From the UHGV virus genome UHGV-1352889: a stretch of 64,000 nucleotides of DNA, one strand, 5' to 3'. The DNA is from a virus. Both the position numbers and the translations under genes were made by a program. Below the pieces are notes generated by a model, which saw only the letters and a program-made list of their open reading frames with translations, searched no databases and had not been told where the DNA came from. Shown here piece after piece: positions 8,934-38,033 of the stretch (within the stretch, counting starts at the first letter, position 1; every line of letters begins with the position of its first letter).

Positions 8934-11900
8934 CTACTTCATCCGATTATGAATTTCCTCTGTACTCAATGCCCCATCAATCGGAATGCTACCCTTCTGC
9001 ATGAGGTTGATAATGAGTTGCTTCTGCTCTTCGATTAGGCGTTTGCCCTCGTCCGTGGTATTAGACTTCTGCAATTCACGGTTGAGCTTCGCGATAGCTT
9101 CACGTCCTGCTTGCGGACTAATGACGTAGGGCATGATGCCCTGCATGGCCGCGCCGTAGGTCTTGGCACTCATACCGGAACTCTCAATCACGGAGTCCAG
9201 AACTTCCGAACGGATGGACGGGTCAAGCATGTTTGTAATTTCCGTAACGAACCGGACACTATTGACTAGCTTGGTGAAATTCTTCACGGCATCCGCGGTT
9301 TCCACGGCTTCCATGAGTTCCACATCCATCCCGGATTCCATTCTCTTGTAGAAGTCCGGACGCAGAATGCTCATTCGCTTCGACTTAGTGACCGCCGCGT
9401 TGGCATTCTTTAACCCGGCGGCAAGGGCTTCGGTCAAATCCTTTGGACGACGGAGACCAGCACCGAACGTTTGCAACAAGTATGCCGCGGTACTCATGTC
9501 AGGTGTATCGCTAGCAAATTGTTTACCAGTCTTGACTGCCCAGCCGTAGAAGGGAATCTTTTTATTGGCAACCGTCGCAACTCGTTCAAGGGCTTGCCAT
9601 GTATGTCCACTGCCAAACGAGGGGTTCAGTCCTGCGGCCAACAGGATTGCGTTGCCGACTGCCGGGAGAACGTTGACGCTTTCATCACCGGAGAGGCTAT
9701 GCTTGTAATTGAAGTCTTCCTCATTAAACAATTCAGAAGCGGCATTCAGAAGGAGGGATTCTTCGAGCACCGTATTTTCCAGCAGGTTTTTCAGTTCGGC
9801 AACCTTGTTCATCCCCCACTTGTCCACATCCATATCCATGAAGAGGCTGGGCAGGGTTTTGGCTAACACCTTGATGGTCTTGAACGGGTTCATGTATTCA
9901 AGGTTCAAATACTCGAACTCATGCCGCTTCATATCTATGATGCCAATCAAGTCCCCGAACTTATCATAGTCAGGAATTAGCCCACTGTCTGCCAGCTTCC
10001 TCATGACTTCCGCGTCGTCAATGATTTTACGGTCATCGTCATCTCCCAAGACACTGGTGATAATCTGTCGGGCAAACAAAGAAGAGACCGCAGAGGTTGC
10101 AGAAATAGTTCCTACGGAACCAGCGGCGCGGAGGATAGCGCGTCCCAAGAGGTAAGCCCCCTCCTTCTTCATGCCGTTATTGATAGCCCACACACCATCT
10201 ACCCCTTCGCCTATGGCGTGGCCAAGGTTGTAGACTACGGACTGGGCGGTATGGTACTGGAACATGAAGAACGGAGCCATAACTATGTTCAGGATTTTCA
10301 CCCACGAAGGAGTACGCGAACCCGTGGGGAGCAAGCTCTTCACCATGTGGGCAGTATACCTATCCACATACGCATTCCAACTCTGGTCAGTCTGGCTCGC
10401 GTCAAGGAGTATCTGGTCCCGCGCATTGGGGTTGGCCTTGCCTTTCGCCCGTGCCAGTTGTACCTTTAATTGGGTGTCGGCAATCGCTCTCTGGTTAGTG
10501 AAGAGAACAATCTTGGCCGCCGCGTCCGGCAAGCCATAGGCGAAGGCCATCGTTTTGATGGGCCATGCTACCACTTTGCCCGCCATCTTGGCGGCATCCT
10601 TAGCCACCTCGCCCTTCGTCCGTTCCTGTTTCTCGTTCAGAGCTTCGGCGAGTTTGAAGAAGGAATCTTCATTCACTTCTTCGAATTCTCCTGCCATCTT
10701 ACTGAACTCGTCAGACTTCCAGACGTTGCGCAGGAACTCCCCTTGACCTGCGTCCAGCAGACCAAGCTCTTGCCAGTAGCGAATCTTCTCGTTGTACCTG
10801 TCTTCCGCGGCCAGCAGTCTATCCGCGGAAGCCTGTGAACCAAGGTCCTTGCCTTTGGACAACCGCCGCAACTTACGCAACTGAAGCCAGTCCCCGACAA
10901 GGTTTGCGATGTCTTTACTCCCCGTGAATGGAAGTGCACCCGCATGGGTCATTTGAGCTACTGTACCATATAAGTTACGTAACGTGGAATTAGGACTAGC
11001 TATTAAGACAGAAAGGTTAGCCAAGCTACCCGCCTTACTCCCCCATCCTTGACCCTTGCCGGACTTCTGCCAGTACTTGCGCACCTTCTTATAGTCGTCC
11101 GTCCGACTGTTCATGATGTCGTCGCTCGGCCTGTAGATGTGATAGATGGCGTCGGCTACATCCTTGTCGGCATATAATCCGTTCAACGCATTCTTCGTAT
11201 TCTTCAAGGAGATTTCCACCATGTCGGGGGTACGGTTCGTGCTAGTCGCGGGTACGACTACACCCTGTGCCTTGAGCACGGTGGCGTACTCGTCAGCAAG
11301 CAACTGGTTCACGGCAATCTTCGACTGCATGGATATGGTATTCTGCAATGTCCCAATGGCATCCCCAATGGTGAGGTCGCTAAGTTCATACATAGCTTTC
11401 CTCTGCCATTCGGGCAAGCGTTTCCGCTGGGCCAGCGCATCTTCATTCGTCCTCTTCTTGGTCAGCACTTCGTCGATGGCCTTCATGGCATCGCTCACCG
11501 CAAGACGGGAGAGTTCCGGATATTGCAACACTTTCAAGTCGGTAGCGGAGATGACGTTGCCCATATTGTTTGCCCTCATGAGAATGCCCGCCTGACCCCG
11601 GAGAAGATTGAGCGTCTTGTCCAGTCGTTCTGCGGCATTCATATTCGGAGCGTTCCATATCTGGTCGATGGCCGAAGTCGGGATAGTGGGGATGGCCTTG
11701 TTCACTTCGGAAGCCACGGATGCCGGGGATTCAAGGCCGCCGATTTTGTCGGCAATCGTGTTTCCCGGAAGGCTGGAGAAGACATCGGCGAGGAAACTAT
11801 CTCTGGCTTTCATGTCCAGAGTTTCTTTCATCTCTGCCATCTTTGACTTCGTGCGATAGTCTGCCTGTGCTATCATGCTCATGGCCTTGTTATACATGGC

Positions 11901-14900
11901 ACTGATGTTGTGGCCGTCCCGCAGGTCCGCAAGCATTTGAACCCTGCCGAAGTTGTTCTGAATGAAGTCAAGAATTTCTCTGGTCCTGTAGTTCTTGGCT
12001 ACACCTTCGAACAGGAGTTTATAATTCGAAGAGGCTCCCGGGGGAGCTGACACCAGCGGAAGTTTCAACTCGTCATGGAACGCGGCCAATGCTTGCATGT
12101 TGTCCAGCACTTGGCTTATGTTTTCGGACAACTCTGTCTGGTGCGCTTCGGCATGAGCGATTGCGGCTTCCTGCAACAACTTCGTCAGGCCATCATACTT
12201 CTGTGCCATCTCCCCGTTGGGATGTGCAATGATGTCCTTCATCGTCCGGGTGAAGTCTCCGGCATGGCGACCTACGGCCATGTAGGTGCGATGAAGATAA
12301 TTCATCTCCGCGGCGTTGTTAGCCATACGGCTATCCCCAATGAGCTTGGCAATAGAGATTTGCGTCGCGGCAATTTCTTTACGGGAATCGGCGATGACAT
12401 TGTAGACCAGTTGACCTACAACCCCTTGTGACAGAAGCCATTGTTCCGCGGCATCCCGCTTAGCCATATACTCTGCCTGTTTCTGACGGCGTGCATCGAG
12501 GATAGCGTTGTCCCGTTTCAGCCACACGGAACCAGCAGGAGTAGTTACGCCAGCACGAGTTACACCCGCTCTCTTTGTTGCAGCGTAGAAATCATCGTTG
12601 GCTTCCCGGATGATTTGTTTAGCTTCGGCCCGTGCCCTAGAGATGTCCTGAATCATAGGAGCAATGGCGGGGTGGTTTGTACTCTCCGCATAGAGGTAGT
12701 CGTTGCGAAGGTTGGACCACCTGTCCAGAAGTTCATCCATAGAGAAGGGACTGTCCACCTCGTTAATCATATCCGCGAGGTAGTTCTGCGTATCGCGGGC
12801 AAGACTAAAGTAGGAGGTTTCCAGATTGGCATCCCCTGTCGCGGAGATACGAGAGCCAAGGTCGGAGAGCGATTTGTGAATCTGCTGGGAGAGCATGGGG
12901 AGAGCCACCGTCTTGTCCAGCATGGCCCCATATCCCTTGACGCTCATGTCTTTAATCCGGCGCATCATGTCATTGATTTCCAATCGCCCTTCACTATTAA
13001 GCGCAAGGGAGTTGGCTAGACGCACCGCTTCCGCGTGCCTATTGACGGCATCGGTAACGGTCTTCTTAGCCAACGCGATACGGAAGTCGCGGGTCTGTTC
13101 GTGCTGGCGAACTTCTGCTTGGGCCTCTGCGTTAATGCGTGCAACGGTTTCAGGGTCAATGTCGTTGTCCATATTCCCCGACATGTCGAGAATGGACTTG
13201 CTCCATTTCTTTCGCGTGGCGGCATCCCAGCCCAGACTATCCGCACGGCGTTGAAGCATATCACCGATTTTGTCGATGCGTTTAATACTGCGCTCGTATG
13301 CCGCATTCACGTTGGTCCTTTGTTCCAGCACAATCAGCTTCTGTTCCTCGGACTTAACATTGATGCCAGCTTTGTCCCAGCCCTTAGACACGCCTTGCCA
13401 TACGTTCTTAACACTAGTCACCCAGTTCCCGGCATTCGTACCGATAATCTCTGCACCCAGACCGAAGGACAGTCTTTGGGTCATGTCGGTCTCATAGGCC
13501 AACGGGTTGAAATAATCTACCTCATGGCTCATGGTGTAGTCCGTATCGTCTACTTTCCATGATGGGGTGCGAGGCATATCGAACCACTTGCCGGGGGTTA
13601 TGTCCGCGACGCGGTCCACATAGGAATCCCATTCAGCCGCATTCTTGGCGGCGGTGGTTCCGTCCATGTCGTCCGCAGTTTGCCGCACATCTCTAATCAA
13701 ATCCTTAAGCCATTCAATGAGGCGCACGTGAACGGGTCTCCTGCCCCCAGCCGCTTCGGCATAGCGAGCCAAATCCGTGAGGGTTACATTGTCTCCGCTC
13801 ACCTCCGCAATCATGAAGTTCATGACAGGATTGGAGAACGCAACACTGGCAAATTCGTCCGGGCCACGGAGACCATAGTTGAGGTCGGAGGCAAGCGCGG
13901 CGATGGCATTCATCTCATTGATGTCCACGCTAGCTTCATACATAGCGGTGAGGCTATCAATGAATTGATTATAGTTCTCCGCAACTGCGCTTCTAATCTT
14001 GTCCATCCGCTGGGAGTAGTCCGCGTTAGTGGCACGAAGATGACGGTCAATGAGGTGGATGGCCTCATGCAGTACTGTTCCCGTTACGCTCTCAATCGCA
14101 TTGTCCCGGTCCATGTACAGGTCAATGACACCACCGACAAGCTTCCCGTCTGTTCCGTTCATGTAGGTGATACTGGCGGGGGAGGCTATATTGGCAGGAG
14201 CATTGGTGGCTCGGATAGCCACGTCCAAACCAGCGGCATGCAATGCGCGGAGCACTCCGTCAATGGCCGCGGCCTGTGCAGGAGATGCCTTGACGCGAAG
14301 GTCCGAAAGGATGCCGTAGGCATTTACGCCCGTCCCGTCAGAGGGGAGATTGAGAGCGGAGACCCTATCCCCCCACTTGGTGCTGGGTGTCCCTCCCTCG
14401 CCCATGTTGTACATGCTTGCGTGCGGAGAGACGACAATGGTTTCTCCCGTGTTGCTCGTAACCAGCGGGGCATTAATCCCGGTCATCTCGTTCAAGGAGA
14501 CGAGCTTGGTTCCGCGGTCAAGAGGTGAACCGGATGAAAGCCATGCCCCAGTGTTGGGGTCGAACGAAGTAATGGCGGCATCCAAGGTATCCACGGTTTC
14601 CACGGCTTCGGGGGTAACTACTCCCGTATCTACCATGTTAGTGACGGAGGCAATGGCTTGGTCCCTCTCCTTCCGTGCCGTGAGTTCCGGGGATTCCGTG
14701 GTAGCCGTGGGTTCCGTGGGCACCGGGGATTCCTTGGTAGCCGCGGCTTCCGTCAATCCGTTAATAACGTTAATGGCGGCATCGAGGTCTTCATCTCCTG
14801 TAGTAAGGATGGACAGGTCATCGTCTACTTCGATAACCTGAACCCGGTCTCCCATAGCATCAAGGGCTTCCGAAAGCATGGTGCGCATGGTGTCGAGGTT

Positions 14901-17900
14901 TTCCTTATTTGGGAATGACAGGGTATTGGGCAGGTCGTTAATGGCTTCTGCCATGAATGAGCTTGCCGCGGCACTGCCCTCGTAGGTATATATTTCGGAG
15001 GCCCGTTCCACTAGGTTGCGGAACTGGGTGAAATTGCTGATGCCCATACGGGTTGCGCCTTCCACCCATGCCTTCCGGGTTTCGTCGGAGACAACCAGAC
15101 TTTCATGGGCAATGGATTTGTCCACCCATTCGCGGGCAACTTCCGCGGCATCCCCCTTCTCCCCGGCAATCTCGATAACCTTCTTTCCGGTTTCTACCAA
15201 GCTTTCCGGCACATTGTTTTTGGTAATGGCTTTGCCCGTTTCCTCGATGATGTTGCTCGCATCTTTCGTAATATCCGGTAGCATGGAAGTAGCATCCTTT
15301 ACATCAAGGGTGGGAACGGCTTCGGTTTGGAAACGTATGTTCCCTTCCCCAGCTAACTGGCTACCAACGTAGCCGCCGATACCCCCAAGGAAAGCAATCT
15401 TTATAGCACCGCTAATCACTTGGTCAGTAGTGGCAATAGAGGATTCGGAGATTTCTCCGTTCTTCACCAGTTCAGTAAATGCCCATTCTTGGAATTCGTC
15501 TGCCAGTTCTTCGGTGGCTCCTTCCACTGCGGCCTTGCTCGTGCTGTACAGATAGGAAGCAACGGAAAGCGTCTTCTCCTTGGTAGTCATTTCAGACCAC
15601 GGCTTGCTTCTCCATCTGGCCATCTTCTGTTCAAGGGTTTGGAATGGAGATTGACCGCGAAGGTTTTTAGCTCCAACAATCTTACGCATGTAGGAATCCA
15701 CACCTGCGCGGTTGTTGATAAGCGTACTGCCAGCGGAGACCAGAGCCGCACCAAAGAGGGCACGCCTACTGGCAATGCTCTGTGCCCGGTTCGTGTTCTC
15801 GGCAGTCGGTTCCTTCCCTTCCATCTCCCTGTCATAAATGGTATAGAAGATGTCGGAGTAAGCATTCGGTGCAACCTGCGAGATGATGGTAAGGTTTACC
15901 CCAGCACCAGCTCCCGCCCTTTCAAGGCTCAAGGCCGCAAGGTTATTAAGGTTACGCTGAATAGTTCCACTCAAACGTCCCGCCAATCCCGGACGGGCGG
16001 CAGGGACCAAAGCTTCTGCCCGCTTCGCTACGACGTTAGCCGTTGCCCTCGCGAACTTGGTCAGAGCGGTACGTTCCAATGCGCGGCCAGCAAGGCCACC
16101 GATTTTACCAGCCCCCGCGGTTGCCACCATTTGGTAGCCGAGGTTAGCGATTTCCGCAGTATAGTCTGCAAGGATGTTGCCTCGAACAAGTTCAGCTTCC
16201 GCTTCCTGTTTTTTGTTCAGCTGGTCCCAGAGGGTGCGGGTATGTTCCATCGCCGCACGACTGCCGACTGCATTCTGCGCAAAGAGAAGAGCACCATAGG
16301 CGGCCCCTGTCCCAAGGTCGATGGCTTTGTGCGTGCCTATCTGGAACCCACGGAGAATAGGATTGATGTGAGCCTGTCCTTTCTCCTGCCACGCGGAGAG
16401 AATGTCCTCGTCGCTCTTGCCCGCTTCCTTCTGTTCATTGTAGAAATTCTTGAAGGAAAGGTACTTGTCCAGATACTTCATGCTTTCGGTCCAGATAGGG
16501 TAGACCCGCATGCCGAAACCAAGCCACGTATCATGGAGCGTTCCCAGCGTTTCATCTAATGCAATGTTGTCCTTCACAAGTTCCTGTGCGGATTTCGTGC
16601 GGAGGTTCTGGAACTTTTCAATGGTGCGATTAATGAGACCTTCGTCCGCGCCGCTAGCACGGAGAGCCTCAATGCTCTTGTCCATCAGCTTGTTGTCGTA
16701 GAGAGCATTGGGGTTCAGTTCGAGAGTGGCGTTCGTATCAACTTCCTTGGTGTGCGGGTTGTACGCAAAGAGACTGCCACGGCCTACGCCCAAGTCACCC
16801 ATACGTGCGGCATGGGAGAGGGAGTTGAGGGCATCGCGAGTATTTTCAATATGGTATTGGGCCATGTATTCCTTCAACCGTTCGGGACCTACATCAAAAG
16901 AGGGACCCCCCAGTACGCCATACTCCCATGTGCCACGCCTCGTTCCCTTTCTCCACTCCATTGTACTTAATGGGTCAGAGGTCTTGCCCACACTATCTCC
17001 CGGCTGGAGGGTAAGCACATCCGCAATTTGTCCCCCCGTGCTTCGGTAGTTAGCCATTGCGCCCTTGACCGCATCCATGAGAGTGCCTCTCGGCGTAGCC
17101 TTGGCGACATAACCCTGAATCAGATTGGTTACTCCCGCTTGGTACAGGATGGATTTGGGAACCCCCGGAAACCTTGTAGCCACGGCTTCCAGTATAGCCT
17201 CACTCATGCCAATCTGTTCATCGGTCTCGAAGGTCAGGGGGCGGTCCTTCTTGCGACGAAGGTCCTTGGCAAGAACTTTGGCCCTTGCACGTATTGCGTC
17301 CATGTCAGCATTGGGGACTAAAGACAGAAGGGTAGAGGCCGCGGCTTCCGGATTGAGAATCGCGTCGCGAAGTTCGAGGTAGGGAAGGCCAGTGTAGTCT
17401 TCTTCGAGCCGACGTACCATTTTGTCTGCCGCCTCTATCTGTTCACGAATCCTATCCTCAACAGGCTTTTCTTTCTTTGAAGTTTGATGCCTGGGGATAT
17501 AGATATCACCGTTCCGGGAAAGGTAATCCCCGTAGTCGCGGACAAGCCGGAACATTTTGCTGGGAGACTTAGAGAGGTTGGCGAGTTCAGCAAAAACATT
17601 CCCAGTAAATGAAGGTGCTGAATCAGAGAATTCGCCAACGCCAAGCTCCCCCACGTTCGTCTGGCTGGGGGTTTTCTTCTGCACGTTCTCCGTCGAAGCG
17701 GCTCGGTGCTTATTATAGAGAGACTTAGCGGCACGATAGTTGTCAATGTCTTCGCGCCTAATCGTATTGATGATGCTTTCTATTTCCTCCGCAGTGTAAG
17801 CAATGGGTGCGCTCTCGATGGCTTCTGCTTTAGGTTTACCTGAATAATCTAGATGCGAGTTGAGGTAATCCTTCCGGGCCTTTTCCATTGTGCTGGCAAT

Positions 17901-18578
17901 GGATTTGGCCACCGCCTTTGCGTTACGGTTTCTGTCCGCGGCAATGGCGAGGAACTTTTCCGTTACGACGGGGTTCCCGTCCTCTCCCATGCCGAAGCCA
18001 AAGCGGGATAAGAATGCGGGTTGCTGGGGAGAAAGTTCGGAGGAAGAGACTGCGACGATGCCCGTGTTATTCGTAAGCTTTTTAATGGCGTCACTATCAC
18101 CACGAGCGGCGGCCTTCAAATCAACCCGCGCATCTTCTCCGCTGTCTAGGTAGTTCTTTATGTAGTCGATTCCCTCAAAGGTGAACCCACGGTTTCCTTT
18201 GTTCAAGACATCAACGTCAGCCTTTTCCGCGGCGGTTTTCCATTGTTGTTCCGTATGGGCGCGGGTTTTTGTTTCCCATTCTACGTTACGTGCGCGGTCT
18301 GCCTGTTCAATCTGTTTCTTCTGAAAGTCCTCAATGGACTTAGAGACATAGTCATCAAACTCCGCGGTAGCTCCTGCGGCTTTCTCCGCGTGGGTCTGTT
18401 TCTTTTCCGCTAACCTTTGCTCGCGGTCTAGTGCTTTCTGTGCTCTGTCTTCCTGTTTCTGTTTTTGCGTCTCTTGCCACGTGGCGTGCCTTTCTGCGGC
18501 TCGCTGTTCACGCGCGATACTGCTTGCCGACGTCGGAGCGAAGTCGGACATATTGGCGGTACTAAAGTCAATGGCCAT
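8934..18578 (-). CDS. giant multidomain virion-associated protein (3214 aa)
   Basis: Uninterrupted 9.6-kb ORF; coiled-coil/Ala-rich N-terminus; HExxH (VLHEAIHLI) mid-protein; no canonical RNAP DxDGD motif found by eye. Confidence 0.8.
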   Translation of the reverse strand: MAIDFSTANMSDFAPTSASSIAREQRAAERHATWQETQKQKQEDRAQKALDREQRLAEKKQTHAEKAAGATAEFDDYVSKSIEDFQKKQIEQADRARNVEWETKTRAHTEQQWKTAAEKADVDVLNKGNRGFTFEGIDYIKNYLDSGEDARVDLKAAARGDSDAIKKLTNNTGIVAVSSSELSPQQPAFLSRFGFGMGEDGNPVVTEKFLAIAADRNRNAKAVAKSIASTMEKARKDYLNSHLDYSGKPKAEAIESAPIAYTAEEIESIINTIRREDIDNYRAAKSLYNKHRAASTENVQKKTPSQTNVGELGVGEFSDSAPSFTGNVFAELANLSKSPSKMFRLVRDYGDYLSRNGDIYIPRHQTSKKEKPVEDRIREQIEAADKMVRRLEEDYTGLPYLELRDAILNPEAAASTLLSLVPNADMDAIRARAKVLAKDLRRKKDRPLTFETDEQIGMSEAILEAVATRFPGVPKSILYQAGVTNLIQGYVAKATPRGTLMDAVKGAMANYRSTGGQIADVLTLQPGDSVGKTSDPLSTMEWRKGTRRGTWEYGVLGGPSFDVGPERLKEYMAQYHIENTRDALNSLSHAARMGDLGVGRGSLFAYNPHTKEVDTNATLELNPNALYDNKLMDKSIEALRASGADEGLINRTIEKFQNLRTKSAQELVKDNIALDETLGTLHDTWLGFGMRVYPIWTESMKYLDKYLSFKNFYNEQKEAGKSDEDILSAWQEKGQAHINPILRGFQIGTHKAIDLGTGAAYGALLFAQNAVGSRAAMEHTRTLWDQLNKKQEAEAELVRGNILADYTAEIANLGYQMVATAGAGKIGGLAGRALERTALTKFARATANVVAKRAEALVPAARPGLAGRLSGTIQRNLNNLAALSLERAGAGAGVNLTIISQVAPNAYSDIFYTIYDREMEGKEPTAENTNRAQSIASRRALFGAALVSAGSTLINNRAGVDSYMRKIVGAKNLRGQSPFQTLEQKMARWRSKPWSEMTTKEKTLSVASYLYSTSKAAVEGATEELADEFQEWAFTELVKNGEISESSIATTDQVISGAIKIAFLGGIGGYVGSQLAGEGNIRFQTEAVPTLDVKDATSMLPDITKDASNIIEETGKAITKNNVPESLVETGKKVIEIAGEKGDAAEVAREWVDKSIAHESLVVSDETRKAWVEGATRMGISNFTQFRNLVERASEIYTYEGSAAASSFMAEAINDLPNTLSFPNKENLDTMRTMLSEALDAMGDRVQVIEVDDDLSILTTGDEDLDAAINVINGLTEAAATKESPVPTEPTATTESPELTARKERDQAIASVTNMVDTGVVTPEAVETVDTLDAAITSFDPNTGAWLSSGSPLDRGTKLVSLNEMTGINAPLVTSNTGETIVVSPHASMYNMGEGGTPSTKWGDRVSALNLPSDGTGVNAYGILSDLRVKASPAQAAAIDGVLRALHAAGLDVAIRATNAPANIASPASITYMNGTDGKLVGGVIDLYMDRDNAIESVTGTVLHEAIHLIDRHLRATNADYSQRMDKIRSAVAENYNQFIDSLTAMYEASVDINEMNAIAALASDLNYGLRGPDEFASVAFSNPVMNFMIAEVSGDNVTLTDLARYAEAAGGRRPVHVRLIEWLKDLIRDVRQTADDMDGTTAAKNAAEWDSYVDRVADITPGKWFDMPRTPSWKVDDTDYTMSHEVDYFNPLAYETDMTQRLSFGLGAEIIGTNAGNWVTSVKNVWQGVSKGWDKAGINVKSEEQKLIVLEQRTNVNAAYERSIKRIDKIGDMLQRRADSLGWDAATRKKWSKSILDMSGNMDNDIDPETVARINAEAQAEVRQHEQTRDFRIALAKKTVTDAVNRHAEAVRLANSLALNSEGRLEINDMMRRIKDMSVKGYGAMLDKTVALPMLSQQIHKSLSDLGSRISATGDANLETSYFSLARDTQNYLADMINEVDSPFSMDELLDRWSNLRNDYLYAESTNHPAIAPMIQDISRARAEAKQIIREANDDFYAATKRAGVTRAGVTTPAGSVWLKRDNAILDARRQKQAEYMAKRDAAEQWLLSQGVVGQLVYNVIADSRKEIAATQISIAKLIGDSRMANNAAEMNYLHRTYMAVGRHAGDFTRTMKDIIAHPNGEMAQKYDGLTKLLQEAAIAHAEAHQTELSENISQVLDNMQALAAFHDELKLPLVSAPPGASSNYKLLFEGVAKNYRTREILDFIQNNFGRVQMLADLRDGHNISAMYNKAMSMIAQADYRTKSKMAEMKETLDMKARDSFLADVFSSLPGNTIADKIGGLESPASVASEVNKAIPTIPTSAIDQIWNAPNMNAAERLDKTLNLLRGQAGILMRANNMGNVISATDLKVLQYPELSRLAVSDAMKAIDEVLTKKRTNEDALAQRKRLPEWQRKAMYELSDLTIGDAIGTLQNTISMQSKIAVNQLLADEYATVLKAQGVVVPATSTNRTPDMVEISLKNTKNALNGLYADKDVADAIYHIYRPSDDIMNSRTDDYKKVRKYWQKSGKGQGWGSKAGSLANLSVLIASPNSTLRNLYGTVAQMTHAGALPFTGSKDIANLVGDWLQLRKLRRLSKGKDLGSQASADRLLAAEDRYNEKIRYWQELGLLDAGQGEFLRNVWKSDEFSKMAGEFEEVNEDSFFKLAEALNEKQERTKGEVAKDAAKMAGKVVAWPIKTMAFAYGLPDAAAKIVLFTNQRAIADTQLKVQLARAKGKANPNARDQILLDASQTDQSWNAYVDRYTAHMVKSLLPTGSRTPSWVKILNIVMAPFFMFQYHTAQSVVYNLGHAIGEGVDGVWAINNGMKKEGAYLLGRAILRAAGSVGTISATSAVSSLFARQIITSVLGDDDDRKIIDDAEVMRKLADSGLIPDYDKFGDLIGIIDMKRHEFEYLNLEYMNPFKTIKVLAKTLPSLFMDMDVDKWGMNKVAELKNLLENTVLEESLLLNAASELFNEEDFNYKHSLSGDESVNVLPAVGNAILLAAGLNPSFGSGHTWQALERVATVANKKIPFYGWAVKTGKQFASDTPDMSTAAYLLQTFGAGLRRPKDLTEALAAGLKNANAAVTKSKRMSILRPDFYKRMESGMDVELMEAVETADAVKNFTKLVNSVRFVTEITNMLDPSIRSEVLDSVIESSGMSAKTYGAAMQGIMPYVISPQAGREAIAKLNRELQKSNTTDEGKRLIEEQKQLIINLMQKGSIPIDGALSTEEIHNRMK

Positions 18579-31246: not shown

Positions 31247-31600
31247 TTAGATTGTTTGTGGCCGGAAGATGTCACGACAGAAAGTGATACCTTTCGGAGT
31301 TAGTTTACTTTTAGTTTGTTTCCTCGACCCCCTCACTCCCTCGTATTCAATATACCCTTTTTCTTCCAGCTTGCGCAGGACATAGTAGAGAGATGATATC
31401 TGGATGCGAGTACCCCTGCTAATTTCCGGGTTACTATGCTCACTCTCAAATCCATTGGCGTGCATGTACAGAAGAACACGTATGTTATCAATGGTGAGGG
31501 AGAAGTCAAGGAGGTCGATATTCAGAAGGAGACCGAGCAAGGTTTGTTGATTGCTCTGGCCCTTCTGCACTGTTCTGGTTGTGGAGTAGGTCGTTCTCAT
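31247..31600 (-). CDS. PadR-like winged-helix transcriptional regulator (117 aa)
   Basis: …EISRGTRIQISSLYYVLRKLEEKGYIEY… matches the PadR recognition-helix/wing signature (lYpaLkrLEekGli). Confidence 0.5.
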   Translation of the reverse strand: MRTTYSTTRTVQKGQSNQQTLLGLLLNIDLLDFSLTIDNIRVLLYMHANGFESEHSNPEISRGTRIQISSLYYVLRKLEEKGYIEYEGVRGSRKQTKSKLTPKGITFCRDIFRPQTI

Positions 31601-32488: not shown

Positions 32489-33523
32489 TCATTTTTCTTG
32501 GGACTTCATAGTTAATATGAAGCTATTCCAGCGGGCTACCGCTTCTTCGCGAGTGCGGCCATGAATGGAAAAGCTATGAGGAAGGAGCTTGACCCCGTTG
32601 CAGACGACATAGCAATGTTCCTCTCCGGGATAGATGGTTTCCCCCACGACCTCCGGGATTTCTCCGCAGTAGAAGCAAGGACGTGGATGGGCGTCGCAGG
32701 CTTCAAAATGCCGTCGCACCTCTTGCCCCACTCTTTCGACAAACATATCAACAATATGCTTCGGCACAATTTCTGTGACCCCGGAATCCGTGGAATCCAC
32801 GGGTCCCCCGGTGCCTTCGTCCTCGGATTCCGTGGCTTCCTCGTAGTTCAGGGGATGGTCCAGCCCCTCGTCGAAACAGGAAGCACAGGGTCCCACGGTT
32901 CCGGGCAAGTCCCCATACTTACAGGTAGCGCAGGGGGAGAGGACATCCTCTTCATCCCCTTTATCCTCTTCATATTCCGGGTACTCAATTCCCCGCTCCT
33001 GTCGGCAATGAGAGCATGGAGGATTGCAACGGAGGTTATCCCGGTGAGTGCAAGTATTGCACGGTTCGATGACATCGTCGTTCTCGTCCGTACCTTCGGC
33101 ACATGGCGCAGATTCATCCGGGGTATAATTCTGATAGCCGTTGCAGGAGATGCAGGGTTCCTCTTCGATAGATTTCCCCTTATATTTACATGTCTGACAG
33201 GTCTGCCCCGTCATCTCGGCTTCTCTCCGCTTTGCTTCTTCCCGCTTCATCATCTCCACCTCTACCAACTTGTTGGTATCGAAGGTGTAGCAGGGAAGTC
33301 CGGGAGTGAGAGCACACTTCTGGCAGGGGGATTGCACCAGCAAGGTATCACGGAATTTGCAGAGGGAGCACCTCCGTGCATCCTCGCTTGCCGCGGTGTC
33401 CGTCGCTTGCGTGGATTCCGTGGATTCAAAGTGGCTAAAGTACATGTCACAACTGGCGCAGGGTTCCGCGGTTTCGGGGAAGTTGCTGTATGCGCAGGTC
33501 CAACAATTTGGTTCGTCGGTCAT
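32489..33523 (-). CDS. multi-zinc-ribbon protein: five tandem CxxC-x11-14-CxxC modules plus C-terminal Lar-like (restriction alleviation family) domain
   Basis: CWTC…CASC / CSLC…CQKC / CQTC…CISC / CNTC…CSHC / CATC…CASC separated by acidic linkers; terminal CFYCGE…HCYVVCNG…EEAVARWN matches the Lar-family pattern CPFCGG…C..CG…EAIxAWNxR. Confidence 0.6.
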   Translation of the reverse strand: MTDEPNCWTCAYSNFPETAEPCASCDMYFSHFESTESTQATDTAASEDARRCSLCKFRDTLLVQSPCQKCALTPGLPCYTFDTNKLVEVEMMKREEAKRREAEMTGQTCQTCKYKGKSIEEEPCISCNGYQNYTPDESAPCAEGTDENDDVIEPCNTCTHRDNLRCNPPCSHCRQERGIEYPEYEEDKGDEEDVLSPCATCKYGDLPGTVGPCASCFDEGLDHPLNYEEATESEDEGTGGPVDSTDSGVTEIVPKHIVDMFVERVGQEVRRHFEACDAHPRPCFYCGEIPEVVGETIYPGEEHCYVVCNGVKLLPHSFSIHGRTREEAVARWNSFILTMKSQEK

Positions 33524-33881
33524 TTTCTTTTGATATGCTTCTTAATGGTTTCGATTACCCACAGGGTGAATAGGACGAGGATGCACAGAGTAATTCCTAT
33601 CCATGCAAGGATGTCAGTAATACTAACAAATATCGTTGTGGTCATGGTGAATGTATTTGCTGGGATTTAGTAGGAATAAGAATAGAATTCTTACGAGGAT
33701 AGATGTACTCGTTATGATACAGAATGCAAGGATTAAATTGAGGAAGAGTGTCATACTCCTTCCTCCTTCTGCTTCATACCTGCCCTTAGCCCAGCGTAAT
33801 ACGCGAGGACCATTCCGAGAGCGGCGATGCTCATGGGACATACGATGAAGATAATGAATAAGAGGTAGGCAATCATGGAGG

Positions 33882-34773: not shown

Positions 34774-35358
34774 TTACTCGGCTTGCTCCATTCCCCACGG
34801 CCATTCAACTATCCTGCTGGGTTCAATGCTTCGTCCGTCTTCCAACAGGATGCGCATGGAGACGCGGGTTCTTCCTGCAACGATTCCGGTATGCCGACGG
34901 AACATACCATCGAAGTACTGGATTTCGGAACCGGGTTGAAGACGCAGAAGCGGAGGACAATGGTCAATGAAGAATCGAGCATTATTCCATGCCTCTTCAT
35001 ACGCTGTCTCCGGGTCATCGTTATCACATCCTTGCACGGCCAGTGAGCAACTCACACATTGAATGAACTCGTAGTTACCCTTCCGTCTTTCTTCCAGCAG
35101 ACCGCCGCAGATAGGACAGAACAGTGGGGGATGTTCTTCCTCTGGGAATGCCTCATCAAAGGCCTTCTCAACTACTGCTTGCGATTCTACGGATTCATCG
35201 CGAAAAGAGAATTCGCTCTTGGTAGGAATGTTCGTTGGGGCCGTGGTATTGGCTTTAACTATTTTCGGGCTAAGGTCTGACATATAAACGTGTGTCAAGC
35301 CATTGGCCTCGTCAATAACAATCTTGGTTATCTGTTTGGGGTTTGATGTCTTGGACAT
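34774..35358 (-). CDS. Lar-like restriction-alleviation family protein with extra C-terminal domain (194 aa)
   Basis: PLFCPICGGLLEERRKGNYEFIQCVSCSLAV…ETAYEEAWNNARF fits the Lar-family zinc ribbon + AWN helix. Confidence 0.55.
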   Translation of the reverse strand: MSKTSNPKQITKIVIDEANGLTHVYMSDLSPKIVKANTTAPTNIPTKSEFSFRDESVESQAVVEKAFDEAFPEEEHPPLFCPICGGLLEERRKGNYEFIQCVSCSLAVQGCDNDDPETAYEEAWNNARFFIDHCPPLLRLQPGSEIQYFDGMFRRHTGIVAGRTRVSMRILLEDGRSIEPSRIVEWPWGMEQAE

Positions 35359-35403
35359 GGCACCACCATATAATAGTTTTATTATTTGTCAAGAAATTAT
35401 TTC

Positions 35404-35436
35404 AATAAAAATCCCCGGAGGGGTTAGCCTCCGGGG
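35404..35436 (-). terminator. rho-independent terminator for minus-strand transcripts
   Basis: Perfect 9-bp stem CCCCGGAGG/CCTCCGGGG with 6-nt loop; A-run on + strand upstream = U-run after hairpin on - strand; sits after stop at 35497. Confidence 0.65.
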
Positions 35437-35496: not shown

Positions 35497-35889
35497 TCAT
35501 CCTTTTGTGAAGAAGTTAAAGAAGGATAGTGTACCGCTATCGGTGAGTACGAACTGGGGATATTGGTCAGGGGTAAATATTTTTGTACCCCCGGAATCCC
35601 CGGTAGCCTCGACAGTCAGAAGGACTGCGGGCACCTTGTCCGTCGGGCTGGAAGGAGATGGAACCTCTCCCAATCGTGCCCAAACTTGGCACGCTTGCCA
35701 CTGTTCGTCAAGAGCGGCAATGGCCTCGATAGCCCCCGCGAGGGTGGGTATCTGCTCCTTCGGCAACGTGGTCTCACTGTACTGGTCAAGGTGCGTAAAG
35801 CCCAGTGCGTCCGCGTAGATTACACTCATAATGAGCTTGGTCCAGTCGCCGGGCTGTGGGAATTGAATTTGTATTTCTGCGTTGTTCAT
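35497..35889 (-). CDS. hypothetical protein (130 aa)
   Basis: ORF; start overlaps upstream gene end. Confidence 0.5.
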   Translation of the reverse strand: MNNAEIQIQFPQPGDWTKLIMSVIYADALGFTHLDQYSETTLPKEQIPTLAGAIEAIAALDEQWQACQVWARLGEVPSPSSPTDKVPAVLLTVEATGDSGGTKIFTPDQYPQFVLTDSGTLSFFNFFTKG

Positions 35890-38033
35890 GCCTGTTCAAG
35901 GGGGATGTTAATATCTTCGAAATCCGTGGCTTCCTCGGATTCAATGGCATCGACGGCCATTGCTTCCAGTCCATAAAAGACCGGGTTCGTGCCTCCCGGC
36001 TGGTAATAGGTGTGCTCTCCGTCGCCTGCATAAACAGAAATGTTGCCAGTCGAATTATTCACCACATCAGTTACCCAGCTGATAATGCCGGAGTTTGTCT
36101 CAAAAGTGGAGACGCCGCGGCATGTGGCAATTTTATACAGATTATTCGCCTGACCTCCGGTGAGCATGAGCCAGAGTGCACCTAGATTATCATACTGGGC
36201 AATATTGGCCGAAGCGTTCTGCTGGTAAATAACCTTGGCAATCGTCCAAGGGATGGGTTCGTTTTGACTGGCCGGGATGAAGCTGGTGGTGGTTTTCACC
36301 TGCCAGCCCGCCGTGGAATTGAGCGCGTAAATCTCACGCACCCGCACCGTATAACCGTTACGCTGGGTATCTCTGACGTTGTCAAAGGTAATATCCAGAA
36401 TTTCGCCCTGATTGTACGCCAAATCGTTTGCCGGGATAATACTGTAAGAATCTATGGAAAGGTCGGAACGAACCGTCTTCGCGCCACGGCCAATACCAAA
36501 GGTCAACTTTGCCGCACCAGTAGCACGCCAAACGAAAGAGAACCCTGCGAAACTGGAATAATTCCAGCGGGCATTAACTCCCACAAAGTCTGCCTGAATA
36601 GTCGAATGAGTTCCCGGTGGAACCTTAATAGTAGCTATATGGTATGGGACTGTTTGTGTCACCGTCGAAGTCCCTGTCTTGGTAATGGTCGTCGTATTGA
36701 GGAAAGCATTAGTGGTCAGGATGTTCGCCTCGCTAGCCAATCCCAACGCATAAAAGCGATTAACCGCCCCCGTATTCGTCGGTGCACCCACGGCCAACGG
36801 GATGTTGATGCCGCTGTTGGCATTGGGGGTTTTGGTGAACGTCAGAACACCGCCCACGGAAATGGTGCCGTACATACGGGTTTGGGAGTTGAACGTAACT
36901 ACCCCGTTATGGTTTTCATTTTTGTAGACCCACAAGTCCCCAGACGTATCGATGGTCAATGTCTTATTGTTGACGTTATTGGGGTCAGTTATGGAGAGGA
37001 AACCGTCGGATTCTTCGTAAAGTATGGCTCGCGTAGGACCGCTCTCCTTGCCGAAGAGGATGCACTTCATCTTCTCGCCAGTGGTGGCAACGAAGCTAAT
37101 GCCGTCATCAAAAGTGGTGGGGTTTTGGAACTTGACAGGAATCGCAACGTCCATGTGGGAAGCGTCCGTCCCCTCAATGACTGCGGCTCCGCTACCATCG
37201 CCGTGGATTTTCACCGCGTCATCCCCTTGTCCGAGAACTAAAGGAACTTCGTTTCCGAGAACTAATCCCGCCGTGTTGGTGAAACTCCATGCCCCGGAGA
37301 TTGTCTGGTCACTAGCTGGGTCAAAGCCAGTGCCAGAACCGCCACCCTCACCGGAGCCTAACCTAAAATTTCTGATGGAGACGAAGTAGCCCGCTTCTTC
37401 AATCGTACTACCGAGAGAAAGAATTGCAGAAGTTTCAGTTGCCACAAAGACCAGCTGGTCAGTAGTCTTACCGCCAGCGAGGAATGCCTTAGGATTGTTG
37501 TCGGCTCCTACGCTAAAGAGCGCATAGCTGAATTCCGGATTAGGCTTCGTTTCCATCAAGCCGCCCAAGTCAGGATGCACATTGATAGAGTAGAGCTTAC
37601 CGCTTTCGAGGTTGGAGATTTTGTAGAAACCTTCGGAGACAGGGCCATCACCGTCCAGCGGAAGGGCCTGATACTCTTGGTCGTAGTCGAACCCCAACGG
37701 GTGAAGAGCAATCGTCGCGTGTGCACTTTCGACGGAGGCGTTCTTGTCCTGCGCGTTAGTGGGGACGACGAAGTACTTACCGTTGGGAGATGCAATCTCA
37801 ATCACCTGTCCCGCGACCGAACCATTGATGATGAACTGTTCCGGCGTAATGTTGGACCACAGTTCGTCAGTAGGAGCGGTAGCGGAAAGCTTGAAGAGAC
37901 AGGGAGAACTGGAAGCAAGAAGCCACGCGGTGTGCGTGTCGGCATCGCCCAGCTTATAGGTTACGCCCGGCGTAATAGGAGAACCGTTGACGTAGTTTTC
38001 AATATTGATTTTAGAAGAACGTTTACGTGCCAT
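35886..38033 (-). CDS. tail fibre/tailspike-like protein (715 aa)
   Basis: Gly/Thr/Ser-rich beta composition; GSGEGGGSGTGFDPASD linker; repetitive T-G-x segments. Confidence 0.6.
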   Translation of the reverse strand: MARKRSSKINIENYVNGSPITPGVTYKLGDADTHTAWLLASSSPCLFKLSATAPTDELWSNITPEQFIINGSVAGQVIEIASPNGKYFVVPTNAQDKNASVESAHATIALHPLGFDYDQEYQALPLDGDGPVSEGFYKISNLESGKLYSINVHPDLGGLMETKPNPEFSYALFSVGADNNPKAFLAGGKTTDQLVFVATETSAILSLGSTIEEAGYFVSIRNFRLGSGEGGGSGTGFDPASDQTISGAWSFTNTAGLVLGNEVPLVLGQGDDAVKIHGDGSGAAVIEGTDASHMDVAIPVKFQNPTTFDDGISFVATTGEKMKCILFGKESGPTRAILYEESDGFLSITDPNNVNNKTLTIDTSGDLWVYKNENHNGVVTFNSQTRMYGTISVGGVLTFTKTPNANSGINIPLAVGAPTNTGAVNRFYALGLASEANILTTNAFLNTTTITKTGTSTVTQTVPYHIATIKVPPGTHSTIQADFVGVNARWNYSSFAGFSFVWRATGAAKLTFGIGRGAKTVRSDLSIDSYSIIPANDLAYNQGEILDITFDNVRDTQRNGYTVRVREIYALNSTAGWQVKTTTSFIPASQNEPIPWTIAKVIYQQNASANIAQYDNLGALWLMLTGGQANNLYKIATCRGVSTFETNSGIISWVTDVVNNSTGNISVYAGDGEHTYYQPGGTNPVFYGLEAMAVDAIESEEATDFEDINIPLEQA

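Follow-up and report, generated by a model that had tools for sequence, protein, structure and literature searches.

The 344-aa protein and its cysteine modules

We analysed a 64,000-nucleotide (nt) stretch of the virus genome UHGV-1352889, referred to here as the window, and within it a minus-strand gene at 32489-33523 whose product is 344 amino acids (aa) long. All coordinates are those of the whole 64,000-nt stretch. The protein carries a variable-number array of four-cysteine (Cys4) modules on a conserved Lar-like domain, which is the main point of the analysis and goes beyond the sequence-only reading of six tandem zinc ribbons. The open reading frame (ORF) spans ATG to TGA and the gene is likewise called on the source contig, L001, while the corresponding frame on the plus strand is interrupted by a stop. 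The features of the gene are as follows.

32489..33523, minus strand: coding sequence, 344 aa; five Cys4 modules, acidic linkers, helix and Lar/RalR-like domain
33449..33505, minus strand: Module 1 (aa 7-25), CWTCAYSNFPETAEPCASC; C7, C10, P21, C22 and C25 invariant in alignment A2
33314..33370, minus strand: Module 2 (aa 52-70), CSLCKFRDTLLVQSPCQKC; missing from the 1345 and 135 variants
33209..33277, minus strand: predicted charged helix (aa 83-105) between modules 2 and 3, from the AlphaFold full-length model
33143..33199, minus strand: Module 3 (aa 109-127), CQTCKYKGKSIEEEPCISC; doubled in 123345 variants
33005..33061, minus strand: Module 4 (aa 155-173), CNTCTHRDNLRCNPPCSHC; lost via an in-frame 141-nt deletion in L002
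32876..32932, minus strand: Module 5 (aa 198-216), CATCKYGDLPGTVGPCASC; fused with module 1 in L011
32774..32875, minus strand: acidic linker (aa 217-250) from the array to the C-terminal domain; many insertions and deletions (indels) in A2, predicted local distance difference test (pLDDT) score <50
32699..32761, minus strand: helix alpha-1 of the C-terminal domain (aa 255-275), with the conserved motif HIVDMF
32519..32686, minus strand: Lar/RalR-like core (aa 280-335) with the CFYCG knuckle, beta-hairpin, H-C-x3-C, third strand and helix EEAVARWN
32641..32645, minus strand: G5 tract in the Lar-like core, GTGGGGGAAACC, encoding part of 'EVVGET'; frameshift site in relatives

The pattern CxxC-x11-CxxC is exact in five units (aa 7-25, 52-70, 109-127, 155-173 and 198-216). 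Five regularly spaced Cys4 units had been claimed in the sequence-only reading, and they were borne out: among 20,000 composition-preserving shuffles of the 344-aa protein, 241 contained at least one such unit and none contained more than two. The regularity of the spacing stood, and the range of 11 to 14 residues given for it did not, as the inter-cysteine spacing is constant at 11 in all five N-terminal units. Elsewhere in the 64-kb window the pattern occurred in no ORF of any frame. The acidic linkers described earlier were also confirmed, with an isoelectric point (pI) of 4.54 and a net charge of -35 for the whole protein and a pI of 4.25 for the N-terminal 244 aa; the net charge of the array is -31. 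The sixth cysteine unit is different, running C283-x2-C286 ... H302-C303-x3-C307 and then EEAVARWN, and the whole protein contains 28 cysteines. The modules are not close repeats at the DNA level, where Tandem Repeats Finder and a repeat finder gave short, weak matches only.

Module statistics were taken from about 480 instances in relatives, comprising 122 distinct sequences. The four cysteines were invariant over all 122, a proline preceded the third cysteine in 121, and other positions varied. The consensus was C-x-T-C-K-[YHF]-x7-E-P-C-x-S-C, and after it comes a tail of aromatic and acidic residues, for example NYTPDE, EYPEYE or LNYEEA. The modules presumably bind zinc.

The suggestion that the protein is a six-fold concatenation of Lar modules did not survive comparison of the modules with the Lar family. 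None of 30 diverse modules matched PF14354, the module profile aligned to the C-terminal domain by hhalign with a probability of 0.3%, and a custom Lar hidden Markov model (HMM), described below, found a single domain in the protein. The N-terminal units also differ from the Lar-like domain in spacing and in having no WN helix. The protein consists of a single Lar-like domain and an array of a different, unclassified Cys4 module. Among the full-length search matches (5.8 billion proteins searched) the array was not found joined to another C-terminal domain, because all full-length matches are the same gene or frameshifted forms of it.

The only recurring module match was to DnaJ_CXXCXGXG, found in 6 of the 30 modules, below threshold and with a best E of 8.5e-4. 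This match and the 28 cysteines in 344 aa are what favour an array that is a DnaJ-like zinc-finger or a metal-handling (zinc-buffering) region, with the Lar resemblance an uninformative shared knuckle pattern. We consider this very unlikely: the modules have no GxG and stay well under the cut-off (best PF00684 score 20.4 bits; cut-off 32.7), and the Lar match continues past the cysteines into the strands and the EEAxxRWN helix, at 37% identity to RalR. The module profile also gave no match in the PDB. The array defines a new small Cys4 module, of a type in neither Pfam nor the PDB.

Module number and selection among relatives

In a search of 5.8 billion proteins there were 121 relatives, 190-413 aa in length. 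Metagenomic contigs of up to ~70 kb are the source of every one, and none is named. The C-terminal domain is nearly constant across them and the module count differs, from 1 to 6. About 40 architectures occur in the ~95 apparently intact relatives. The window type, 12345, accounts for 22 proteins, and further architectures include 1345, 1235, 135, 123345, 12334(5) and others. Gaps in the alignment of relatives are whole modules with sharp edges.

Gene calls can mislead, so we re-derived the ORFs from the DNA at 32 loci. These fell into 13 architecture classes, of which 12345 was found at 17 loci; the rest were 1345, 1235, 123, 123345, 123(5)4(5), 123(5)5, two '14345', one single-module form and a few frameshifted genes. 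About 27 of the 32 loci were intact. Two candidate classes from the protein-level data were discarded in the process. Architectures starting with module 3, suggested by protein clusters, were rejected when L002 showed that P0102 is an internal-start call of a 1235 gene, and the zero-module proteins P0118 and P0119 were frameshifted gene calls.

Individual loci record how modules were lost or changed. The 1235 gene of L002 (a 70,109-bp contig) lacks module 4 through an exact in-frame 141-nt deletion between two linker motifs. L006 (12345, 339 aa) and L011 (151 aa) have 2-kb flanks that are 100% identical and differ by four modules; one 564-nt in-frame deletion in L011, with its junction at a 7-nt microhomology, fuses module 5 onto the first knuckle of module 1 and leaves one hybrid module. 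The '14345' forms are a module 2 carrying a copied-in module 4 loop, a case of gene conversion. In-frame deletion, duplication and gene conversion between modules and linkers have thus altered both the count and the order of modules among nearly identical phages. Since flanks are identical and module changes are in frame, module turnover is recent, recurrent and frame-preserving.

The ratio of nonsynonymous to synonymous substitution rates (dN/dS) among the seventeen 12345 genes was 0.49 for the array and 0.57 for the C-terminal domain. Values for twelve neighbouring genes were 0.14-0.43, making the 344-aa gene the highest of the 13 compared locally.

An ortholog is present at the same position in a sister phage lineage, whose syntenic proteins are 26-75% identical to those of the window lineage. 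This ortholog combines two or three modules with the helix and the Lar-like core, at ~32% identity. The ligand pattern of its core is CIC ... H ... CNGC or CNGS, with CNGC/CDGC in some proteins. At L035-L038 (IMG/VR contigs of 38-72 kb) the ortholog is 190-193 aa long with three Cys4 modules, and the first knuckle of its core is cut to C-I-C; the second is CNGC at some loci and CNGS at others. The zinc ligand set of the Lar-like domain is evolutionarily plastic. More distant relatives (P0125, P0127 and P0129) are helix and core only, about 100 aa in length. The array seems to have been added to the domain, and the addition appears to be old in this group of phages.

Frameshifts in relatives fall exactly at the position of the G5 tract, which reads G4, G6, G7 or G9 in the affected genes, and truncate the Lar-like domain. 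In the alternative allele, GGAGG ('EVVEET'), no frameshift was found at this site. The G-tract frameshifts could be real slippage, acting as on/off switching, or assembly error.

If the ORF were non-functional or in decay, with repeats that are simply unstable, this would account for the several frameshifted relatives, for the relatively high dN/dS, and for an array that can be deleted almost wholly, as in L011. This explanation is nevertheless the most improbable of those considered. The cysteines are invariant, most re-derived loci are intact and their module indels are in frame, dN/dS is <1, and the architecture is kept in the sister lineage at the same position at 32% identity.

The C-terminal domain and its genome context

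The C-terminal module had been read as Lar-like. This held at the level of the superfamily, and the window protein itself scored below both curated family cut-offs, with the values given in the next section. The Lar call rests on the family as a whole, namely the relatives, profile A1 and hhalign. A Pfam scan of the whole 344-aa protein gave no match at E<=1, and NCBIfam gave a chance-level cytochrome c550 match only; when the C-terminal 60 aa were scanned alone, the sole NCBIfam match was TIGR03655 (anti_R_Lar). Relatives scored 23.7-27.2 bits against TIGR03655, and RalR, as a positive control, scored 55.3 bits. PF14354 (Lar_restr_allev) matched the C-terminal domains of 19 of 20 diverse relatives at E<=1, with a best E of 8.9e-6.

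A profile of the C-terminal domain (A1) was searched against 1.84 billion representative proteins and gave 24 proteins in total at E<=0.001. Distant matches among them exceed the PF14354 threshold, at 83, 49, 33, 30.5 and 29.5 bits. Alignment by hhalign of A1 with Escherichia coli RalR, the product of ralR (b1348) in the Rac prophage of strain K-12, gave 90.3% probability, an E of 1.5e-6 and 37% identity over 49 columns. The custom Lar HMM was built from RalR and eleven distant domains with the phage family left out, and matched the 344-aa protein once within the window, at aa ~280-334 (43 bits, E 2.3e-12); its members were picked from A1 matches, so the test is not fully independent. We conclude from these profile comparisons that the C-terminal ~95 aa are a divergent relative of the Rac Lar/RalR of E. 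coli.

The first zinc knuckle of the Lar family, C-P-x-C-G, is present as CFYCG in the window protein and CPYCG in most relatives. The second knuckle is altered, and a conserved H-C pair (HCYVVC), of which the histidine is invariant, lies four to five residues upstream of it. The Lar-type E-A-x-x-x-W-N helix is present as EEAVARWNSF, with W332 and N333 invariant. An AlphaFold model of the last 97 aa had a pLDDT of 82.7 and the topology helix, knuckle, three strands, helix. A fold search of BFVD gave weak matches only, several of them named 'restriction alleviation protein Lar', and a PDB sequence search with the C-domain profile gave nothing meaningful. NF007260 (RalR type I toxin-antitoxin) was matched by RalR alone (166 bits) and by no phage protein; no search for a small RNA (sRNA) was made.

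The window is a phage genome, with genes for a large terminase, exonuclease, helicases, family A DNA polymerase, primase-helicase and NAD ligase. Its GC content is 46-55%, it has no tRNA genes, and it matches an ENA scaffold of 69,792 bp. The 344-aa gene sits in a tight run of small same-strand genes: its ATG overlaps (ATGA) the stop codon of a hydrophobic ORF of 41 aa, and its TGA shares bases with the ATG of an ORF of 29 aa. Three features upstream are the following.

33520-33876, minus strand: three short hydrophobic ORFs of 41, 72 and 41 aa directly upstream; uncalled on the source contig
34774..35358, minus strand: second, weaker Lar-like gene, 194 aa, with its core at aa 81-124; Pfam Lar E 0.0054
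35365..35436, minus strand: terminator-like hairpin and then a promoter-like site, from a consensus scan only

The second Lar-like gene lies three called genes upstream of the 344-aa gene, with short uncalled ORFs in between, and both are possibly in one transcription unit. Its core is mid-protein and is followed by a C-terminal extension without assignment. Its alleles across loci fall into two core types, and its length is 140, 194, 195 or 208 aa. P0124 is an in-frame fusion of its N-terminus with the C-domain of the 344-aa protein, which indicates that the two genes have recombined in at least one relative. The GC-rich hairpin (9 pairs and a T-run) lies close before the second Lar-like gene, and the promoter-like site TTGACA-16-TATGGT comes directly after the hairpin. 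This site may start an operon that holds both Lar-like genes.

Other genes of the window gave few assignments. Three genes downstream of the 344-aa gene is a 117-aa winged-helix protein (31247-31600, minus strand; HTH_27, E 5e-6) with a weak likeness to replication-initiator O-like PHROGs. A giant ORF of 3214 aa (8934-18578, minus strand) had no Pfam match at E<=0.001, and ORFs of 963, 756, 715 and 400 aa had no Pfam or PHROG matches either. Within the 715-aa ORF (35886-38033), ~1 kb of DNA at 35842-36825 is 80% identical to Akkermansia phage Chantilly, where it corresponds to the C-terminal half of the hypothetical protein WAK79040.1; Akkermansia phage DTMo-2021a is 75% identical. This Chantilly-like stretch hints at module exchange and possibly at an Akkermansia host. 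An N4-like phage, guessed from the ~70-kb genome and the 3214-aa ORF, was unsupported, given a giant ORF with no Pfam match and a DNA polymerase only ~27% identical to the best isolate.

For the 344-aa protein, tblastn found no match in 50,697 GenBank phages, no relative was found in 185,579 species genomes, and a megablast against plasmids gave nothing. A PHROGs scan gave two weak matches to families without assigned function. The phage lineage is essentially uncharacterised.

The protein might instead be an accessory factor of transcription or replication, with tandem zinc modules and a ribbon-helix domain that bind host RNA polymerase or single-stranded DNA and with no role in defence. Elf1 and TFIIB ribbons and the C-terminal ribbons of topoisomerase I would be the models. 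However, the underlying matches are all below significance, copy-number turnover and a dN/dS of ~0.5 are unusual for a core factor, and cultured phages have no relative. We regard this reading as quite improbable.

Proposed function and known systems

We tentatively favour, at somewhat less than even chances, an accessory effector of an uncultured ~70-kb gut phage in which the Lar-like domain engages host DNA or a modification/restriction complex and the array adds binding or decoy functions. The Lar-like domain would be the working end. Its docking partner would be host DNA or a complex for DNA modification or restriction, as the EcoKI methyltransferase is believed to be for Lar and Ral. The array would provide multivalent, tunable binding or a polyanionic decoy, and by altering how many modules the array has and which ones, the phage could keep pace with variable host targets. 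The proposed action comes after infection and would shield phage DNA. Its role in countering host defences is a reasoned guess by analogy. In the case of Lar and lambda Ral, the effect is believed to be a boost to de novo methylation by EcoKI, a Type IA enzyme (PMC3177214, PMC12707154), so that incoming DNA would be modified and not cut.

Along with the evidence for the Lar-like end given above, three lines of evidence are consistent with this effector. The array is real and selected, because its cysteines are invariant, its dN/dS is 0.49, its indels are in frame with sharp edges and an ortholog exists in the sister lineage. Tunable valency is suggested by the ~40 architectures, the identical flanks of L006 and L011, and the module 4 patch inside module 2. 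An accessory or arms-race flavour is suggested by the highest local dN/dS, the nearby second Lar-like gene and the net charge of -35.

A more specific version, which we consider improbable, is an intragenic 'accordion' in which microhomology-mediated, in-frame gain, loss and conversion of modules generates effectors of varied valency and specificity that track variable components of host restriction-modification or other defences, possibly with on/off slippage at the G5 tract. If true, the 'accordion' would mean that phages can diversify a counter-defence protein in a manner not described so far.

Several results weigh against the effector. The last 60 aa of the window protein scored 13.3 bits against PF14354 (E 0.099; gathering threshold 28.6) and 18.9 bits against TIGR03655 (curated cut-off 39.6). 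The second C-x-x-C knuckle of the Lar family is absent: KCNGC of RalR aligns with VCNGV, the last residue being A in relatives. In the AlphaFold model the array has a pLDDT <50 and no strands, except for the helix at aa 83-105 (block means 56 at aa 81-90, 72 at aa 91-100 and 47 at aa 101-110), and both zinc binding and the term 'zinc ribbon' for the array modules would come from the pattern of cysteine conservation. The gene is located among genes sharing a strand with replication and packaging genes, with no recognisable early region. Amino-acid identity across loci has a median of 88-89%, against 83-98% for neighbours, which is in the low part of the range and not exceptional. The mechanism of Lar is itself unknown (PMC3177214). 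Anti-restriction is also not the sole precedent, because RalR, the same founding protein, is reported to act as a non-specific DNase toxin under the control of the sRNA RalA (PMC4041452).

The protein could instead be a RalR-like DNA-directed toxin or nuclease for host takeover, in which the C-terminal domain would bind or cut duplex nucleic acid and the polyanionic array would serve as an in-cis DNA mimic that masks this domain until the time of need. We judge this unlikely. Structural matches are only marginal, RalR has no defined catalytic residues, and the second zinc knuckle is altered. Single-module and six-module phages also occur in otherwise identical genomes, which is hard to reconcile with a strict mask.

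Lar-family domains are common in phages and their mechanism has been unknown since 1995, and the founding member has been described in two conflicting ways, as a restriction-alleviation protein and as a DNase toxin. The relatives form a natural series in which the same Lar-like domain is combined with 1 to 6 modules in otherwise near-identical genomes. Questions such as the binding target of the domain and the importance of valency could be put to this allelic series as a ready-made construct set. The family is also a record of rapid, in-frame turnover of repeats within an accessory gene of a phage lineage that has no cultured relative and possibly infects Akkermansia.

The literature on tandem zinc ribbons in anti-restriction and on N4-like Akkermansia phages yielded nothing relevant, and a paper on polyvalent proteins does not discuss Lar. 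Restriction alleviation in vivo is known for Rac Lar only (PMC3177214). The protein shares with Lar/RalR the first knuckle, the beta-hairpin, the third strand and the E-A-x-x-x-W-N helix. In contrast to Lar, a 64-aa single domain, the domain here has an extra N-terminal helix and stands at the end of a 245-aa array, its second-knuckle CxxC is replaced by H-C-x3-C, and it scores under the curated cut-offs. Ral, a small protein of phage lambda, is believed to speed up de novo methylation via HsdM and in this way to relieve Type IA restriction (PMC12707154). Its likeness to the 344-aa protein is in the proposed mechanism, by analogy, and we claim no sequence relationship; Ral has neither cysteine modules nor a repeat array.

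Eukaryotic RanBP2/NZF fingers and DnaJ CXXCXGXG repeats, which are mini zinc ribbons arrayed on flexible linkers, resemble the array as tandem small CxxC-x(10-11)-CxxC units with multivalent binding. They show no significant similarity to it and the module consensus is distinct, so membership of these families is not claimed. The double-stranded-RNA-binding domain fold is a further point of comparison. T7 Ocr and ArdA are strongly acidic phage and plasmid proteins that counter Type I restriction-modification, and both are rigid folded mimics. The family, PDB and module scans gave no sequence or fold match between them and the 344-aa protein. The likeness to Ocr and ArdA is in acidity, with an array pI of 4.25, and the difference is that the charge here is carried in flexible linkers between Cys4 modules.

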